Shown here one piece after another: positions 11,139 to 18,880 of a stretch of DNA of 64,000 bases. The DNA is from Thermodesulfobacteriota bacterium (lineage in GTDB: Bacteria; Desulfobacterota_D; UBA1144; Nemesobacterales; Nemesobacteraceae). The first letter of the stretch is position 1, and each line of letters opens with the position of its first letter. Made by a program: the position numbers and the translations under genes. The stretch covers positions 1,167,933-1,231,932 of the forward strand of contig OZ241964.1 in NCBI GenBank assembly GCA_965204035.1, read 5' to 3'. The notes beneath the pieces are model-generated. The model did not search any database. It was not told the DNA's origin and saw only the letters and a program-made list of their open reading frames with translations.

Positions 11139-12347
11139 TCACCGGACCGAAAGTATTATCTTCTGTATGTCCGCGGTCCGCTCAGACGCGGAGCACATTT
11201 CCATCACCCTGCGCCTTGAGTTTCGGCCCATTTCACCCCGGGCCTCCGCGTCCCGCACAAGAATCGAGACGCTCTCCCCCATCTTCTCAAAATCCCCGGA
11301 GGTGCAGAGAAAACCGGTCTTTCCGTCCTCAATGGCCTCCGCTATTCCGCCTATTGAGAACCCCACGACGGGAAGGCTGAACGCCATCGCCTCTATCACT
11401 GACCTCGGGAAAGGATCAGGATAATTGGACGGAATAACGAAGAGGTCAAAGTCCTTAAGATACGGCCTTACGTCCTTTCTGTATCCTGTGAAGATAAAGC
11501 TGTCCCGCACCCCCAGGCTCTCCGCGTGGTCCTCAAGTTCCCGCAGGTGGTTTTTCGGGAAAAACCACGGAGTATCTCCGACTATGACGAACTTTGTTTT
11601 CTCCTTGATACTGCCGTCTGAGACAAGTCGACTTACGGTGTCAATGAATTCCACGTAGCCTTTTCTCGGAACCACCCTTCCGGTGTTTCCGACAAGCACG
11701 GTATCCGGTGGGATGGAGAACTCCTCTCTCAGGGAACCCCGAACGGAATCCTTGTCGAAATCCGCGGGGTCAATGCCGTTATACACTACGTGAACCTTGC
11801 TCTTCGCTCTCTCAAACGGTCTGGCCGTGGCACGGGAAACGCATATTATCTTCTTCACGCACTGAAACCCCGAGAGCGTTTCCATCAAGGATTTCATAAA
11901 TCGCGTCTGCTGTATGTTCCTTACGTGCCAGATAACGGGTTTCTTGTTTCTCTTTCCGATCAGGGTGCCCACGATTTTTGCGAGGGTTCCGTTGCAGTAG
12001 ACAATGTCGATCGCGTTCTCCCTGATTATTTTAGGGGAGCCCAGGAGCAGGCGGAGCATATTCACTATGTTTACGATTATTGAGAAAACTCTCATAAGAC
12101 CCGGGGCCCACGTGGTGTCCGCCACTATTGTTGATTTCTGTATGTTCTCGGGAAACCTTGGGTCGACTATGACGTTCTCAAAGATGCCCTCGGATTTCAG
12201 GCTCTCAGAGAATATGTCGTGCTTCGGCACGAGCACGAACGGGTTTATCTTATCCCGGTCAATGTACTTCAGTATGTAGAGAAGACTTCTTCCCGGTCCT
12301 CCGTCCCTTACCGAGTGATTGATGAAAAGTACATTCTTTTTTTTCAT
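11139..12347 (-). CDS. GT4-family glycosyltransferase (GT-B fold)
   Basis: C-terminal GT1/GT4 signature: EAMAFSLPVVGFSIGGIAEAIEDGKTGFL. Confidence 0.85.
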   Translation of the reverse strand: MKKKNVLFINHSVRDGGPGRSLLYILKYIDRDKINPFVLVPKHDIFSESLKSEGIFENVIVDPRFPENIQKSTIVADTTWAPGLMRVFSIIVNIVNMLRLLLGSPKIIRENAIDIVYCNGTLAKIVGTLIGKRNKKPVIWHVRNIQQTRFMKSLMETLSGFQCVKKIICVSRATARPFERAKSKVHVVYNGIDPADFDKDSVRGSLREEFSIPPDTVLVGNTGRVVPRKGYVEFIDTVSRLVSDGSIKEKTKFVIVGDTPWFFPKNHLRELEDHAESLGVRDSFIFTGYRKDVRPYLKDFDLFVIPSNYPDPFPRSVIEAMAFSLPVVGFSIGGIAEAIEDGKTGFLCTSGDFEKMGESVSILVRDAEARGEMGRNSRRRVMEMCSASERTADIQKIILSVR

Positions 12348-12462
12348 ATCGGCTGATATTGCGGTACAATCCCCGGAGTGTTAGAGTGGAAAAGAAAAAT
12401 AAACTAATACAAATTTCATGTTATCTTTATATGTTAGGCAAATTAAAAATCAAGGAATCTTA

Positions 12463-13221
12463 ATGCACACAAAAACCCGCGCAAGCACCGTGAAAACCTA
12501 CCTGTTTTTCCTCTTTATTTCCTTATTCGCAGTCTCGGGATGTGGCCTGGATGTCGAGTTCGGAGGCAGTGGGAATGGAGACGACGGTGAAGGATCCGAG
12601 AACATAGAAGGATTTATCATAGATGTAATTCCGCAGAGAGATAACGGGGTTTCAGATCTTGTCATAAGGATTGTGAATAAAGAAACCACCCAGAACTACC
12701 AATTGCTGAAAGACTGCAGGATGGGAGCGAGCAACTCAGAAGTGGAAAATCAAGAACAGACAACAGGAACCAATGGAGCCTTTTGCGTAGAGGGGGATTT
12801 TGACCCCGAAGCCGAGCTCAGAATTTCTGAAAGTGGGAACGAAGACTCACCGCTTGCGGTAACAAAGCTCACCGTCTTTCCCGGAGCAATGATTGACATT
12901 GGAGACATTCGCATTAGGGGTGGAAACATAGAATACACGGAAGATATCAACATAGATTTCAATATGGATTTCAGAGGACGTGTATCAACTGCAAACTGTC
13001 GTGATAATACTGGAAACATAGAAGTGGAAATTGATAGCAACAAAACGACTGATAATAATCCAATAGAAGTACTTGTTCAGATAAAATCAGATACCGAGAT
13101 TGAAACAGCAAATTTTGAAAATCTTGGTTGCGACTCCATAACCGTGGGGGACACAGTCAGGAGATTAGAAGGAACCCTGGACGGTATCACTATCAAGGCA
13201 AATTTCATCGAAATAGAATAA
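12463..13221 (+). CDS. AT-rich hypothetical lipoprotein (acidic, Asp/Asn/Glu-rich)
   Basis: Signal peptide plus lipobox (FAVSGC). Low GC relative to neighbours. Internal GNIE repeats. No family recognised. An ORF extension from 12418 is possible. Confidence 0.5.
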   Translation: MHTKTRASTVKTYLFFLFISLFAVSGCGLDVEFGGSGNGDDGEGSENIEGFIIDVIPQRDNGVSDLVIRIVNKETTQNYQLLKDCRMGASNSEVENQEQTTGTNGAFCVEGDFDPEAELRISESGNEDSPLAVTKLTVFPGAMIDIGDIRIRGGNIEYTEDINIDFNMDFRGRVSTANCRDNTGNIEVEIDSNKTTDNNPIEVLVQIKSDTEIETANFENLGCDSITVGDTVRRLEGTLDGITIKANFIEIE

Positions 13222-13252
13222 CTGGTCTGGTTTTTGCCGAGACCTGCTCCCT

Positions 13253-14353
13253 CTATCTTCCCTCCATGGTAATACGCGCCCTCTCCCTTCCTTTCTCCGT
13301 AAGAAAAAGCCCTCCGCCCGCGACAGCTATTTCTCCTTTGCGCTTCAGAAATTCGACCACTTTTGAGGCGAAATCAGCTGACCGAAACATGCCCCTGCTG
13401 TCGGGGTGGTTCTTTACCGCAACTCCTCTTTCCTGGTTGTAAAGACTCACGAGGAGCGAAGCCTCGGCAAAATCCATCCTCTGTTTCCTTTTTTCTCTCA
13501 TTATGCCGAAGAGCCCCCTTTGAGGAGCAAGGAGAAAAACCACGAGAAAAAACAGCCCGCACACAAAAGCCATTGAACCCGCTATGTTGACGTCAAGCCA
13601 GTTGGCGGCCCAGAATCCCGAAACGGCCGCCGAGATCCCAAAGACCACACTCAGGAGAATCATCCTGAAAAGCGAATCCGTAAGAAGATAGGCGCAGCAC
13701 GGCGGAATCACTATAAGCGCTATAACAAGTATCGAGCCCACGGCATCAAACGCGCCGACGCATGTAAGCGACACGACAGCCATAAGCAGGTAGTGGATGA
13801 GCCGGGGACGGAATCCTATTGACGACGCAAAACTCTCGTCAAAGGTCGACACCTTGAGCTCCTTGTAGAAAAAGCAGATGAAAAGCAGGTTCAGAAGAAG
13901 AATCGAACCCATTACGTAAGCCGACTTGGGCCCCAGGTCCACACCCGAGAGAATCAGGCGGTGAAAAGGGGCAAACGCTATCTCCCCGAGAAGCACCGAG
14001 TGGGTGTCAATATGCACGTTTCGCGCGTACCTGGAAAGCAGTATGACCGCCACGCTGAAAAGAAACGGGAAGACTATCCCTATCGAAGCATCCTTTTTTA
14101 CCAGCCTTGCCCGGTTAACCGCCTCTATGAGCGAAATCGCTAGCACTCCGCTTGCGGCAGCTCCTATTATGAGAATCGGCGACGAGAGGTCCCCCACGAG
14201 AAAAAAAGCGAGGATTATGCCGAGCAGAATGGAATGGCTGATCGCGTCAGTCATCATGGACATCCTCCTCAGAACAAGAAACGCCCCCGGCATGGCGCAT
14301 GAAGCCGCAACTATGATGGCTACCAGCTGTATGTCAAACTGATGCGCGCTCAT
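13253..14353 (-). CDS. Metal (Mn/Zn/Fe) ABC transporter permease (ABC-3 family) with a C-terminal DtxR-like winged-helix extension
   Basis: Eight or more TM segments typical of MntB/TroD/ZnuB. About 85 cytoplasmic C-terminal residues (…VVEFLKRKGEIAV…LFLTEKGRERA) resemble the DtxR N-terminal wHTH. The start overlaps the upstream permease stop by 4 nt. Confidence 0.85.
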   Translation of the reverse strand: MSAHQFDIQLVAIIVAASCAMPGAFLVLRRMSMMTDAISHSILLGIILAFFLVGDLSSPILIIGAAASGVLAISLIEAVNRARLVKKDASIGIVFPFLFSVAVILLSRYARNVHIDTHSVLLGEIAFAPFHRLILSGVDLGPKSAYVMGSILLLNLLFICFFYKELKVSTFDESFASSIGFRPRLIHYLLMAVVSLTCVGAFDAVGSILVIALIVIPPCCAYLLTDSLFRMILLSVVFGISAAVSGFWAANWLDVNIAGSMAFVCGLFFLVVFLLAPQRGLFGIMREKRKQRMDFAEASLLVSLYNQERGVAVKNHPDSRGMFRSADFASKVVEFLKRKGEIAVAGGGLFLTEKGRERARITMEGR

Positions 14354-15477
14354 ACGTTACTCCCCACCGGCGAAAGCCTTCTGATTTCGCGAATGCCGCT
14401 CGGGGTAAGCCGCCAGTTCTCTTCCCCCGCTCTCTCCACGTATCCCGCCGCCTGCAGCTGCAAAAGACTTTTTCTCACGTTAAACCCCTTCCCGCTTCCA
14501 AGCGCAAGCAGCTTCTCGGAATGCGCGTAGCCGGGGTCGTTATGCTCAAGGGCCAGATCGTGCAAGGCTTTTAGGACGTAATCCCTTTTTATCTCCCTTC
14601 TGCTCCTTGCGTCCTTGAATCTCAGGGTGAAAAATCCGTTCGACGAGAAAAGAATCGAGAAAAAAGCGATAACGCTCACGCAGACTATAACCGCGGGTCC
14701 CGTCGGCACGTTCTCAAGCCCTGCACTCAGCGCAACACCGGTTACGCCGGAGACAGCCGCTACCGAGGCTGAAAGAATCACCATCGAGCCCATACTGCCG
14801 GTCCACTGTCTGGCCGCAACCGCGGGAGCGATGAGCATTGAACTCATAAGCACGACCCCTACTGTCTGCAGCCCGATCACTATCGCCGAAACTATGACGG
14901 CCGTGACGAGCAGGTCAAGAGACTTCATGGAAAAGCCCATAGTGCCTCCGAAATCCGGGTCGAAGCAAAGAAGCTTGAACTCTTTCCAGAAAAGTCCCAC
15001 GACCAGAAGGGCGAAAAGCCCCGTAAGACCTATAACAAGGACGTCTTTTTCGACAAGGGCCTCCGCCTGACCGAAAAGGAACTTGTCAAGCCCCGCCTGG
15101 TTGGCATCCGGCATTTTCTGCGCGTAGGTAAGAAGAACGAGCCCAAGCCCGAAAAAAACAGAAAGGGCCATCCCCATCGCGCTGTCGGTCTTTATCCTTG
15201 AGTTGCTCGTAATCAGGTTGATCAGGAAAACCGCCAGGACGGCTGAGAGCGCAGCCCCGATAAAGATCGGCAGCTGTTCCTTGACTCCCATTATTATGAA
15301 GGCAAGCACTATTCCGGGAAGGGCCGCGTGCGACATGACGTCGCCCACGAGACTTTGCTTTCTGAGCACCGCGTAAGAGCCAACCACGCCGCTTACAATC
15401 CCAAGAGAAGCCGCTCCCAGGAGAATGGTCCTGGCCGTGTAGTCAGAGAAAAGCTCAACCGCGAATTCGAGCATCAC
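14350..15477 (-). CDS. Metal ABC transporter permease (ABC-3 family) with a C-terminal DtxR-like winged-helix extension
   Basis: ABC-3 permease core. The C-terminal about 95 aa (…LQLQAAGYVERAGEENWRLTPSGIREIRRL) align with the HTH region of the standalone DtxR at 17245..17904 (KLSEKKLITHKRYQGVKLTPSGRKIA). Confidence 0.85.
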   Translation of the reverse strand: MMLEFAVELFSDYTARTILLGAASLGIVSGVVGSYAVLRKQSLVGDVMSHAALPGIVLAFIIMGVKEQLPIFIGAALSAVLAVFLINLITSNSRIKTDSAMGMALSVFFGLGLVLLTYAQKMPDANQAGLDKFLFGQAEALVEKDVLVIGLTGLFALLVVGLFWKEFKLLCFDPDFGGTMGFSMKSLDLLVTAVIVSAIVIGLQTVGVVLMSSMLIAPAVAARQWTGSMGSMVILSASVAAVSGVTGVALSAGLENVPTGPAVIVCVSVIAFFSILFSSNGFFTLRFKDARSRREIKRDYVLKALHDLALEHNDPGYAHSEKLLALGSGKGFNVRKSLLQLQAAGYVERAGEENWRLTPSGIREIRRLSPVGSNV

Positions 15478-16250
15478 ACTGCCCTTCTGGCCGATTTCCT
15501 TTCGGGGAAAAAGGAGGTCTTGCCTCCGTAAGCCTTCATGAGGTTCTCGGAATTAAACACCTCATCCACCCTCCCCGAGGCCACAAGCCCCACATTCAGA
15601 ATGGCGATCCGCTCGTAGTACTCGGAAACGGTGTTAAGGTCGTGATGAACCGCGAGCACGGTCTTTCCCCAGGCGGCGAGTTCCTTCAGTATCCTGACTA
15701 TCGCTTTTTCAGTCGTGGCGTCAACGCCCTGGAAGGGTTCATCCAGAAGATAAACCGACGCACTCTGGACAAGAGCTCTCGCGAGAAAGACTCTCTGCTG
15801 CTGTCCTCCGGAGAGCTGGCTTATCTGCCTCTGGGCAAACTCAAGCATATCGACTTTCTCAAGAGCGCCGAGCGCCTTTTCATGTTCCCGTTTTCCGGGA
15901 CGCCTTATCCAGCCCAGATCTCCGTAACTCCCCATCTTCACCGTATCCACTACGGAGGTGGGAAAATCCCAGTCCACAGAACCTCTCTGGGGAACGTAAC
16001 TCACTTCCTTTCTTTGTCTCTCGTAAGGTTTGCCGTGGATTGAGACGACCCCCGCGACGCGCGGAACAAGTCCCTGGATGGATTTTATCAGCGTTGTCTT
16101 GCCGGCGCCGTTTGGTCCAACGACGGCGACCATCGACCCGCTCGGAATCTCAAGATCTATATCCCAGAGAACGGTCTTGTCGCCGTAAGCGACGGTAAGG
16201 TCCGTCACACGGACAGCCGGAACGGCCGGATTCTGCTCTCCGCTGCTCAT
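15474..16250 (-). CDS. Metal ABC transporter ATP-binding protein (MntA/ZnuC/TroB-like)
   Basis: Walker A GPNGAGKTT, ABC signature LSGGQQQRV, Walker B LLDEP. Overlaps its neighbours by 1-4 nt. Confidence 0.9.
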   Translation of the reverse strand: MSSGEQNPAVPAVRVTDLTVAYGDKTVLWDIDLEIPSGSMVAVVGPNGAGKTTLIKSIQGLVPRVAGVVSIHGKPYERQRKEVSYVPQRGSVDWDFPTSVVDTVKMGSYGDLGWIRRPGKREHEKALGALEKVDMLEFAQRQISQLSGGQQQRVFLARALVQSASVYLLDEPFQGVDATTEKAIVRILKELAAWGKTVLAVHHDLNTVSEYYERIAILNVGLVASGRVDEVFNSENLMKAYGGKTSFFPERKSARRAV

Positions 16251-17233
16251 TACCCGTCTCCGGCGGCTTCGGCTTTGGAGTCAGCAACCTCGATGCTGCG
16301 GACAAGAGACTCAACGATAGTGTCCACATTGCTTCTGAACATCCCTATGTAGCTGCCCTCTTCCGTTCCCGGGCTGCCCATTGAATCCGAGTAAAGGCTG
16401 CCGCCTATCCGGACATCAAAACCTCTTGCCTTCACCGAGGCCCGGAGGGCGCGCATGTATCTGGGGGAAATGGATGTTTCGACAAAAACTGCCGGAATTC
16501 TCCGCTCGGTGATCACCCTTGAGAGATTCTGTATATCCGCGACGCTCGCTTCGGAATCGGTACTTATTCCCTGAAGCCCCATTACCTCAAACCCGTAACC
16601 TCTTCCGAAGTAGTTAAACGCGTCGTGGGCCGTTATAAGCACCCTTCTTTCGTGGCTCACCGAGGCTATCTTCTTTCGTATGTAAGACTGCAAAAGGCTA
16701 AGTTCCTTGAGATAGGATTCGGCGTTCTGCCTGTAGATACCGGCGTTTTGCGGGTCGTAGAGCGAGAAGGCCTCCATGACAACCCTGGCCGCTTTTTTCC
16801 AGAGAGTGACGTCAAACCAGATATGCGGGTCGTAGTATCCTTCATATTCCTCGGGAGAAAGAAGCAGGGACTTGTCGATTCCCTCCGCGACGCCCACGGT
16901 GAATACCCCGCTTTTTTTCATCTGCGCAAGAACATCCGTAATCTTTCCCTCAAGGTGAAGTCCGTTATAAAAAATCATGTCGGCTCCGGCAAGCCTCTCC
17001 ACGTCCCCGGCACTTGCCTTGTAAAGATGCGGGTCAACCCCGGTTCCCATGAGGGAGATGACCTCCGCTTTTTCCCCGGCGACGTTCCTCACGAGATCTC
17101 CGATCAAGGCGGTGGTCGTAACCACTTTTATCGTGCCTTCCCTTTTTACGCTTCCGCTGCTTTCAGCGCAGGACGCGCAGAGCACCAGCAGCGCAGAAAG
17201 CAGAAAGAACCTTATGCCCGTTATCGTTTTCAT
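16250..17233 (-). CDS. Metal ABC transporter substrate-binding lipoprotein (cluster A-I, TroA/MntC/ZnuA family)
   Basis: Signal peptide plus lipobox (LCASC). SBP_bac_9-like sequence with conserved His/Asp metal ligands. Confidence 0.9.
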   Translation of the reverse strand: MKTITGIRFFLLSALLVLCASCAESSGSVKREGTIKVVTTTALIGDLVRNVAGEKAEVISLMGTGVDPHLYKASAGDVERLAGADMIFYNGLHLEGKITDVLAQMKKSGVFTVGVAEGIDKSLLLSPEEYEGYYDPHIWFDVTLWKKAARVVMEAFSLYDPQNAGIYRQNAESYLKELSLLQSYIRKKIASVSHERRVLITAHDAFNYFGRGYGFEVMGLQGISTDSEASVADIQNLSRVITERRIPAVFVETSISPRYMRALRASVKARGFDVRIGGSLYSDSMGSPGTEEGSYIGMFRSNVDTIVESLVRSIEVADSKAEAAGDG

Positions 17234-17244
17234 TTTTTCCTCTC

Positions 17245-17904
17245 TCAGTTGTTCGCTTTCTCAACCAGTATGTACTTGGCGGCGTTTCGCCCTATGGGGT
17301 GTTCCTTCCCGGTCAGCTCGATGATTATGGGACCCTTAAAAGGCTGCTTCGAGATAACCGTCATCTCGGTCTCGGGGTAAAGACCTATCCCGCCCAGATA
17401 ACGAAGCAGTTCCGGGTCATGATCGCTCACCTCAACCACTCTCACCAAGGTGTCGGGCTCCACATCCACAAGGGCGTCGCACTCCCTCACAATCATGGTG
17501 CCGTCCCGGCGCGGAATCGGCGAACCGTGCGGGTCGGTCACCGGATAACCCAGAAACTTGTCAATCCTGTCTTCAAGATCTTCTGAGAGCACGTGTTCCC
17601 ATTTCTCGGCCTCCTGGTGCACCTGGTCCCAGGGAACGCCGAGCGCCTCCTTGAGATAAAGCTCGATAAGCCGGTGATGTCTGATTATCTCAAGAGCTAT
17701 CTTCCTGCCAGAGGGAGTAAGCTTCACCCCCTGGTAGCGCTTGTGGGTTATGAGCTTTTTCTCCGAGAGCTTCTTCATCATGCTCGTCACCGAAGCCGGA
17801 GACACGCCCAGTTTTTCCGAAAGCGCGCTGGTCGAAACCTTTCCTTCGGAGGCCTCAACCTCGTAAATGGTCTTCAGGTAATCCTCTATTGATTGTGAAA
17901 GCAT
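17245..17904 (-). CDS. DtxR/MntR-family metal-dependent transcriptional repressor with C-terminal FeoA/SH3-like domain
   Basis: N-terminal wHTH (MLSQSIEDYLKTIYE...), metal-binding and dimerisation region, C-terminal SH3-like domain. First gene of the transporter operon. The ORF track extends further N-terminally to 18015. Confidence 0.9.
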   Translation of the reverse strand: MLSQSIEDYLKTIYEVEASEGKVSTSALSEKLGVSPASVTSMMKKLSEKKLITHKRYQGVKLTPSGRKIALEIIRHHRLIELYLKEALGVPWDQVHQEAEKWEHVLSEDLEDRIDKFLGYPVTDPHGSPIPRRDGTMIVRECDALVDVEPDTLVRVVEVSDHDPELLRYLGGIGLYPETEMTVISKQPFKGPIIIELTGKEHPIGRNAAKYILVEKANN

Positions 17905-17960
17905 CTTTTCTCTCTTTATCTCAGCGAAAACCGCCTGAGATTCAGACAGGCAAAAAAATA

Positions 17961-17977
17961 TTTTAGCCTTATCTAAA
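17961..17977. promoter_or_regulatory. Candidate metalloregulator operator: partial palindrome TTTTAGCCTTATCTAAA in the divergent dtxR / cyclotransferase promoter region
   Basis: TTTAG/CTAAA inverted repeat in an AT-rich intergenic region directly upstream of the dtxR-family gene. It resembles DtxR/MntR box half-sites. A separate GCCTG..CAGGC hairpin lies at 17933-17951. Confidence 0.3.
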
Positions 17978-18064
17978 TTTGTTTTTAATTCTAGCAAAAA
18001 CAAAACCGCTGTCAAGAAAAAACCGGGGTTTCTAAAGAGATATTTATGGCTTAGAATAAGCCCT

Positions 18065-18880
18065 ATGCGGAAGCAGTGTCATAAAAGAGTAAATCCCCTT
18101 GCGGTCACGGCAGGTCTTGTGTGCCTTTTTCTCCTTGTTTTTTCCTCATGTTTCACGACGGAAAACAAGGGGTATTATCCCGGCGGGACCACCTTCAGCG
18201 TGCTCTACTCTTTCCCCCACGACCTGACCGCTTTCACTCAGGGATTTGTCTACAGAGACGGTTTCCTTTATGAAAGTACCGGGCTTCACGGGAACTCGTC
18301 TCTTAGAAAAATCAACCCGGTCACGGGACAGGTACTTGCCAGGGTAGACCTTCCCGCGAGGTTTTTCGGCGAAGGTCTTACCATTATAGGCGACAGCATA
18401 TACCAGCTCACCTGGAGATCCAGGCAGGGTTTCATATACGACAAGGAGAGCCTGCGGCAGAAAGGGTCGTTTACCTATTTAACCGAAGGCTGGGGACTTA
18501 CCGACGACGGAACTCAACTCATAATGAGCGACGGAACCGAAAAACTGTATTTTCTTTCCCCCACGAACTTCGGGATAACGAGAATCTTAAGCGTAAAGGA
18601 GAATGGATCGGCGGTTACTATGCTTAACGAGCTTGAATACGTGGAGGGAAAAATCTACTGCAACATATGGCAGTCGGACGACATAGTGGTTGTAGATTCC
18701 TACAGCGGCATGGTGGAGAGACGGATAAACCTGGGGGAACTCAGGGAAAGGCTGAGTTTTCCGGACAGAGCGGGAGTGCTGAACGGAATTGCCTGGAAAT
18801 CCTCCTCCCGCACTTTCCTCATCACCGGAAAGAACTGGTCCGAGGTTTTCGAGATAAGATTCGGTTTCAACTACCCTTGA
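18065..18880 (+). CDS. Glutamine (glutaminyl-peptide) cyclotransferase family beta-propeller protein, lipoprotein
   Basis: Signal/lipobox (VFSSC). Sequence pattern of the plant/bacterial-type glutamine cyclotransferase family (YPHDLTAFTQGFVY..., GLTDDG, GIAW). Confidence 0.7.
   Translation: MRKQCHKRVNPLAVTAGLVCLFLLVFSSCFTTENKGYYPGGTTFSVLYSFPHDLTAFTQGFVYRDGFLYESTGLHGNSSLRKINPVTGQVLARVDLPARFFGEGLTIIGDSIYQLTWRSRQGFIYDKESLRQKGSFTYLTEGWGLTDDGTQLIMSDGTEKLYFLSPTNFGITRILSVKENGSAVTMLNELEYVEGKIYCNIWQSDDIVVVDSYSGMVERRINLGELRERLSFPDRAGVLNGIAWKSSSRTFLITGKNWSEVFEIRFGFNYP

Follow-up and report, generated by a model that had tools for sequence, protein, structure and literature searches.

What are the C-terminal extensions carried by both permeases of a bacterial metal importer, and what might they do? 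The question is raised by a locus in a 64,000-nucleotide stretch of DNA (the window) from a Thermodesulfobacteriota bacterium (contig OZ241964.1, positions 1,167,933 to 1,231,932 of the forward strand). In the open reading frame (ORF) calls, five genes lie between window positions 13253 and 17904, all in the same direction and adjoining or overlapping one another; on the minus strand their order is dtxR/mntR, a ZnuA-type binding protein, an ATPase, permease 1, and permease 2. These genes make up an importer operon of the Tro/Mnt type (ABC-3, cluster A-I), headed by a DtxR/MntR-family repressor. The genome is that of a marine Candidatus Dadabacteria, as judged from the database names of near-identical proteins; the predicted class of substrate, judged from the sequences, is a metal of the manganese/iron/zinc type. 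A first-pass annotation had described the ends of both permeases as DtxR-like winged helix-turn-helix (wHTH) domains in an unusual, YtgCR-like arrangement, and had proposed that they may link the state of transport to transcription or sequester the repressor.

Both permeases are an ancient, widespread "long form" of the Tro-type importer, a form that is essentially uncharacterised. That their C-terminal tails are winged-helix domains is a firm conclusion. We read the tails, with a little less than even confidence, as cis-acting cytoplasmic regulatory or metal-sensing modules of the transporter and not as autonomous repressors, a reading suggested by patterns in their sequences.

The permease tails and their fold

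The permeases and their tails have the following positions in the window:

14350 to 15477, minus strand: permease 1, TroC-like long form, 375 aa (Pfam ABC-3, E 1.5e-64, residues 16-277)
14353 to 14622, minus strand: tail 1, a basic juxtamembrane linker and a wHTH, permease 1 residues 286-375 (AlphaFold2, Foldseek, hhalign)
13253 to 14353, minus strand: permease 2, TroD-like long form, 366 aa (Pfam ABC-3, E 3.3e-45, residues 10-274)
13256 to 13504, minus strand: tail 2, a helical basic linker and a wHTH, permease 2 residues 284-366 (AlphaFold2, PDB profile, Foldseek)

Both permeases exceeded the gathering score of ABC-3 (PF00950), which is 20.1 bits; their own scores were 218 and 155 bits. Permease 1 starts either at GTG 15477 (375 aa) or at ATG 15474 (374 aa, as in its database homologues). 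Beyond the end of the ABC-3 match, at residue 277 in permease 1 and residue 274 in permease 2, about 98 and about 92 residues remain, respectively. The transmembrane (TM) domains are homologous to those of the solved permeases PsaC (7kyo/7kyp) and ZnuB (9oko), with E-values of 2e-30 and 1e-8. Because the C-termini of PsaC (282-290 aa) and ZnuB (260 aa) coincide with the end of the ABC-3 match, each window permease has about 90 extra C-terminal residues, as the first-pass annotation had stated. The PsaC and ZnuB structures end just past the last TM helix, and there is no solved structure with a tail.

Extensions of this kind could be artefacts of mis-called stop codons or frameshifts and not domains at all, a possibility to which we assign a vanishingly small probability. 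Permease 1 ends in ...GSNV-TGA, and its stop codon overlaps the ATG of permease 2 (ATGA). It has 120 database homologues of 374-375 aa that are 88-100% identical to it; over the last 90 residues, the identity is 71-100%. Homologues of permease 2 with 366-376 aa occur in many phyla and cover 98-100% of its length, including the tail. We rejected the artefact, which the first-pass annotation had named as one of two findings that would undo its claim, on the grounds of the same-length homologues, present in hundreds of independent assemblies, and of the ATGA overlap. The confident structural models of both tails and a profile homology well above shuffled controls, both described below, also speak against it. 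Both stop codons are correctly called.

Predicted alone, a check that the first-pass annotation had proposed, both tails gave winged helices in AlphaFold2 (AF2) models built on family alignments of the tails (pLDDT 71 and 83). The model of tail 1 has the canonical topology H-β-H-H-β-β-H. Tail 2 (pLDDT 82.8 before rounding) starts with a long helix 1, after which come the recognition helix, the wing in the form of a β-hairpin, and one last helix. Helix 1 of tail 2 runs on unbroken from the juxtamembrane basic stretch in the AF2 model, so this tail has no long tether. The winged-helix part comprises about 75 residues, and each tail ends about 10 residues past the post-wing helix. In Foldseek searches against the PDB, both tails matched winged-helix proteins only. 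The top two matches for tail 1 were to the IdeR of Thermoplasma acidophilum, with an rmsd of 2.1-2.2 Å over about 75 columns and 27-28% identity; for tail 2, IdeR, MntR, and DtxR made up most of the top 50 matches, with a probability ≥0.9 and identities of up to 33%.

Sequence searches with the tails of the window itself returned little. A Pfam and NCBIfam scan gave no wHTH family at threshold and, as its sole match, a weak one to Ribosomal_S19e. The search of the C-termini for Fe_dep_repress or DtxR-type HTH domains that the first-pass annotation had suggested was negative; Fe_dep_repress (PF01325) did not match the window's tails even at E ≤ 10. Pairwise BLASTP found no significant match between the tails, or between either tail and the DtxR of the operon, and a tail-only query in a word-indexed protein search returned three candidates.

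Family profiles revealed more. The tail-2 family profile had MntR (E 0.0035), IdeR (0.0038), and DtxR (0.046) as its top matches among PDB sequences. An initial tail-1 profile that contained Dadabacteria sequences only was too shallow (Neff 1.4); it gave a probability of 14% to tail 2 and an E-value of 0.22 for its best PDB match, IdeR. For a deeper profile, tail-1 orthologues were gathered from 80 genome loci. With this diverse profile, Thermoplasma IdeR was level with archaeal S19e (E 0.014), followed by ScaR, SloR, IdeR, and DtxR. In hhalign comparisons, the tail-1 and tail-2 families aligned over their whole length (84 columns) with a probability of 94-95% and an E-value of about 1e-7. The tail-1 family aligned to the N-terminal domains of the co-operonic DtxR proteins over 70 columns (probability 92.6%, E 4.5e-7), with helix 1 (DYVLKAL versus EDYLKTIY) and the wing (LTPSG) in register; for the tail-2 family, the alignment to the DtxR N-domains covered 48 columns (probability 70%, E 4e-5). 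Column-shuffled controls (24 per comparison) scored about 10 ± 2 with a maximum of 17.5, whereas the real scores were 39, 29, and 42; none of the 24 came near the real score.

Below threshold, Pfam connected members of the tail families with other winged helices (HVO_A0261_N, HemN_C, S19e, and MksE). Among tail-1 members, HVO_A0261_N was found in 22 of 50 and Fe_dep_repress in 6 of 50; among tail-2 members, HemN_C was found in 39 of 68, and PF01325 was not among the families listed. The DtxR family is the best-matching family of regulators in the PDB by both profile and fold, and "DtxR-like" is the best-supported, yet remote, description of the tails. The wHTH fold in the first-pass annotation is thus borne out, as are DtxR N-domains as the nearest characterised relatives; the DtxR label itself is a distant one that stays below the Pfam threshold. 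Similarly, the alignment of the LTPSG/LTEKG turn to the DtxR of the operon holds between profiles and fails in pairwise BLAST. The tails are paralogues of each other, in agreement with the duplication proposed earlier. They are related to DtxR and, as had been noted, lack its dimerisation/metal domain: Fe_dep_repr_C (PF02742) was absent from both tails in the Pfam scan.

Spread of the long form

A scan for relatives with one genome per species gave at least 585 species-level matches, of which the best 80 were examined. These 80 span about ten phyla, including Dadabacteria/Thermodesulfobacteriota, Chloroflexota, Poribacteria, Gemmatimonadota, Zixibacteria, Bacteroidota, Bacillota, and Actinomycetota. 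Together with two Thermoflexales loci they form a set of 82, in which ORF calls were assigned by BLAST. In 71 of these 82, permease 1 (about 373-380 aa) and permease 2 (about 367-373 aa) are both of the long form, and a full DtxR gene is often located upstream where the flank is long enough. The combination of two tailed permeases and a complete DtxR can therefore not be called unusual, as it had been in the first-pass annotation. The window's locus is an ordinary member of this widespread long form in which, as described below, one tail is degenerate. A search of the literature found no paper on the form with two tails, on where it occurs, or on the residues it conserves.

In five loci from Actinomycetota, Bacteroidales, and Bacillota (L024, L047, L054, L063, and L064), permease 2 is long and permease 1 is short (298-311 aa), which is also the pattern of TroC and TroD in Treponema; these loci have kept the TroD-type tail, including the His cluster, and have no TroC-type tail. 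Searched against 1.8 billion representative proteins, the tail-2 profile matched only ABC-3 permeases or fragments of them. The 410 matches in this representative library do not give a usable family size, as the conserved TM domain makes the family collapse at 50% identity and fragments are numerous among the matches.

Some further features of these loci were observed. More than 20 distinct library "proteins" of 71-72 aa (P0256, P0263, P0282, and others) start at the Met of MLAIHLLNHEG, position 16 of the profile; these entries are probably gene calls on short contigs and not free-standing tail proteins. In five loci of Candidatus Poribacteria (L045, L056, L059, L060, and L067) a gene of about 2.7 kb separates the ATPase and permease 1; in L056 (2953-5652) it encodes an 899-aa protein whose sole Pfam match is a C-terminal FlgD_ig. 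The order in the Thermoflexales operon is DtxR, ZnuA, an extra hydrolase, ATPase, and permeases of 372 and 369 aa. The extra gene (L001:3167-3877, L002:1908-2618) belongs to the ATC_hydrolase family (PF14196) and lies between the binding-protein and ATPase genes; genes for a multicopper oxidase and a Zip-family transporter are located just downstream.

Conserved residues and a proposed role in metal sensing

We compared the residues of the tails within and outside the window's clade, which consists of 11 marine Dadabacteria-clade genomes; 70 tail-2 and 59 tail-1 sequences fell outside it. In tail 2, seven positions stand out in these sequences: two H (70/70 each), E (61/70), E (68/70), another two H (60/70 each), and W (70/70). 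They form the pattern I-H-L-L-N-H-E-G ... E ... H-L-x-x-H-L-R-W, with two H-x3-H pairs (residues 306-331 in permease 2 of L001, and about 303-330 in permease 2 of the window). The corresponding motif in the TroC-type tail is H-x-D-x2-H-x-H; two of its His residues are each present in 57 of the 59 tail-1 sequences, and in between are D/N/E and a third His (40/59). The ligand-type residues are found close to where helix 1 ends and within helix 2, at a distance from the recognition helix.

Charge and the recognition helix distinguish the tails from the regulators encoded beside them. The median net charge is -2 for tail 1 and -3 for tail 2, compared to +5 for the DtxR N-domains of the same loci. 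In helix 3 of the tails, conservation is limited to buried positions and the exposed positions of the recognition helix vary, whereas the recognition helix of the co-encoded DtxR (S-P-A-S-V-T...KKL) is nearly invariant. These patterns in the sequences argue against a conserved operator-binding role.

The acidic tails, the variable exposed surface of helix 3, the conserved ligand-type residues, the short helical linker, and the frequent presence of a co-encoded DtxR are the reasons why we favour a module that acts in cis. In the long form, the last TM helix leads through a short, basic, helical linker directly into the winged helix of about 75 residues. The His/Glu cluster of the TroD-type tail and the H-x-D-x2-H-x-H motif of the TroC-type tail would be well placed to sense metal in the cytoplasm, and binding of metal by the tails might feed back on transport (trans-inhibition) or on the coupling to the ATPase. 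Control of transcription would be left to the complete DtxR encoded in the operon, acting at a palindrome over the -10 element. Importers with a comparable logic exist: in MetNI (C2 domain), ModBC, and MalK (regulatory domain), an extra cytoplasmic domain binds the imported substrate and throttles import. The likeness extends to the proposed logic only, as those domains are part of the ATPase subunits and have unrelated folds, in contrast to the tails, which are winged helices attached to permeases.

The sequences from the window's own clade fit the proposed sensing less well. Tail 1 of the window retains H312, D314, and H319, with Y317 in place of the family's third His. In the tail 2 of this clade, the cluster has been lost; one Glu is kept, and the other positions are occupied by S, Q, A, H, G, and R, with a deletion of 4 residues between the H and the G. 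Judged by its sequence, the tail 2 of the window is a degenerate version of a domain that is rich in His and Glu elsewhere in the family, and sensing in this clade, if there is any, would rest on tail 1.

This loss is also one of the observations that would be expected if the tails had a role in structure or assembly. Winged helices often act as protein-interaction domains, and the tails may have been co-opted for docking to each other, to the ATPase, or to free DtxR, so that they would stabilise the complex or orient it, without any sensing and perhaps partly vestigial in the window's clade. In spite of the loss of the ligand cluster, tail 2 stays 73-95% conserved within the clade. Furthermore, the TroC-type tail is dispensable in the five loci with a short permease 1, and the sub-threshold Pfam matches of the tails include the non-regulators HemN_C, S19e, and MksE. 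Packing alone can, however, hardly account for the invariant His/His/Glu/His/His/Trp over about ten phyla, and as a general explanation we consider a purely structural role quite unlikely.

Transcriptional control, known systems, and meaning

The remaining features of the operon are its promoter and three further genes:

17978 to 18015, minus strand: sigma-70-like promoter with an inverted repeat (TTGACA at 18015-18010, a 16 nt spacer, TAGAAT at 17993-17988)
17245 to 17904, minus strand: DtxR/MntR-family metalloregulator, 219 aa from ATG 17904 (Pfam Fe_dep_repress 6.5e-19, Fe_dep_repr_C 1.8e-32, FeoA 1.7e-16)
16250 to 17233, minus strand: ZnuA/TroA-family periplasmic metal-binding lipoprotein, 327 aa (Pfam ZnuA 4.4e-79, 266 bits)
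15474 to 16250, minus strand: ABC ATPase subunit, 258 aa (Pfam ABC_tran 3e-30, 106 bits)

The standalone DtxR is complete, as the first-pass annotation had held: it consists of a wHTH, a dimerisation/metal domain, and a FeoA/SH3-like domain, all three above the Pfam gathering score. Its best NCBIfam model is MntR (Thermus type), with 187 bits, which is under the cut-off of the model; the NCBIfam scan of the operon proteins found no equivalog at its cut-off. The promoter 5' of dtxR is the best sigma-70-like promoter in the region, with 11 of 12 consensus positions matched and a TG extension. A perfect 9-nt inverted repeat, TTTGTTTTT / AAAAACAAA (17978-17986 / 17996-18004), is located on both sides of the -10 element. 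By analogy with the tro promoter/operator (PMC2628430), this palindrome is a candidate operator of the DtxR/TroR type, and its position is as expected for one. Control of the operon by a riboswitch was rejected; Rfam gave no match at E ≤ 0.1 across 12300-18400.

The operon is flanked upstream by a divergent glutamine cyclotransferase gene (18065-18880, plus strand; Glu_cyclase_2, E 2.5e-88) and downstream by a convergent gene for a 267-aa protein without a Pfam match (12418-13221, plus strand). The hydrophobic N-terminal segment of the latter ends in Cys, which gives the protein a lipoprotein-like look.

The overlap of the palindrome with the -10 element of the operon promoter is among the points in favour of a second reading, in which the tails are repressors. 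The two wHTH domains, held by the permeases as a pseudo-dimer or cut off by a protease, would then bind the operator and couple the state or abundance of the transporter to transcription. The homology and the similarity in fold to the DNA-binding domains of DtxR, IdeR, and MntR are consistent with such a role, as are the basic charge of the tails and the conserved polar and basic residues of helix 3 in the window's clade. There is also a precedent. In Chlamydia trachomatis, as in the window, a metal importer operon encodes an ABC-3 permease whose C-terminus is formed by a DtxR-related domain; YtgC carries the whole DtxR-like repressor YtgR, with conserved metal ligands, and YtgR is cleaved off (PMC5599777). 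This review cites a report of such fusions from 11 phyla.

However, several properties of the tails do not fit a repressor. They lack the dimerisation/metal domain, and we rejected the possibility that the window's tails are full YtgR-like repressors because this domain is absent. Where YtgC has a whole, cleaved repressor, the window has only wHTH domains of about 75 residues, on short, helical, basic linkers, on both permeases, and beside a separate full DtxR; the term YtgCR-like was therefore misplaced. The linker to the membrane has about 10-15 residues and is helical in the AF2 model of tail 2, which offers no obvious cleavable tether, and we infer that the ATPase dimer on the cytoplasmic face would be a steric obstacle. 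The N-terminal domain of DtxR, IdeR, and MntR has the same winged-helix topology followed by a helix, but the tails score under the Pfam threshold, do not conserve S-P-A-S-V-T, are mostly acidic, and are fused to a membrane protein. The acidic charge and the variable recognition-helix positions are family-wide, in contrast to the invariant recognition helix of DtxR, and many of these operons already possess a complete DtxR. We therefore consider a tethered or released repressor unlikely, and, on the sequences, the suggestion of the first-pass annotation that the tails act on transcription or sequester the repressor is doubtful and not the one we favour.

The preferred reading, a cis-acting sensing module, has its own difficulties. 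The nearest characterised relatives of the tails are bona fide DNA-binding domains, and the YtgC-YtgR precedent demonstrates that a DtxR-like domain borne by a permease is able to act as a repressor. The link between the tails and DtxR has only modest E-values (0.0035-0.2 in the PDB searches), and Pfam, below threshold, places the tails nearer other winged-helix families. In the window's clade, the ligand cluster of tail 2 is gone, the tails are net basic (+2 and +3), and helix 3 of tail 1 contains clade-conserved Arg/Lys/Ser/Gln. At the window's locus specifically, the tails may bind DNA or play a purely structural role.

The closest parallel to the window's operon is found in Treponema. The troABCD-troR operon has the same gene set, including a DtxR-like repressor, and a palindromic operator at a sigma-70 promoter. 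In T. pallidum and T. denticola, TroC has 298/304 aa and TroD has 367/366 aa (PMC2628430). By its length (366-367 aa), TroD has the same long form as permease 2 of the window. A 2026 preprint describes the TroD of T. pallidum as predicted to end in a winged helix, and calls this architecture unique (10.64898/2026.05.05.717303). The systems differ in three respects. Treponema Tro is one-tailed, with a short TroC, whereas both permeases in the window are tailed; the repressor gene is the first of the operon in the window and the last in Treponema; and the His/Glu/Trp cluster, although invariant in other phyla, is missing from the TroD-type tail of the window.

ABC-3 importers (Psa, Mnt, Znu, Tro, and Ytg) are central to the homeostasis of manganese, iron, and zinc in bacteria and to virulence. 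A conserved winged helix on the permeases, with invariant ligand-type residues in about ten phyla, suggests a layer of regulation that has not been studied, and by its length the long form is also present in the TroD of the syphilis spirochaete. The YtgC-YtgR of Chlamydia would then be one end of a wider spectrum of architectures that combine a permease with a DtxR domain. The interest of these findings is at the level of the family, in the invariant His/Glu cluster and the two-tailed heterodimer; the result for the window itself is more modest. A more specific proposal, which we put forward as a speculation with the chances against it, is that the paired tails bind the imported metal in the cytoplasm, in most phyla by the four-His/two-Glu cluster of the TroD-type tail together with the H-x-D-x2-H-x-H motif of the TroC-type tail, and either shut the importer (trans-inhibition) or, with the permease heterodimer as a dimerisation scaffold, reposition two DtxR-derived DNA-binding domains. 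If this were true, metal homeostasis by Tro/Mnt-type importers, including that of Treponema pallidum, would have a post-translational layer that had so far gone unrecognised, and the Dadabacteria version in the window would be a natural variant without one half-site.

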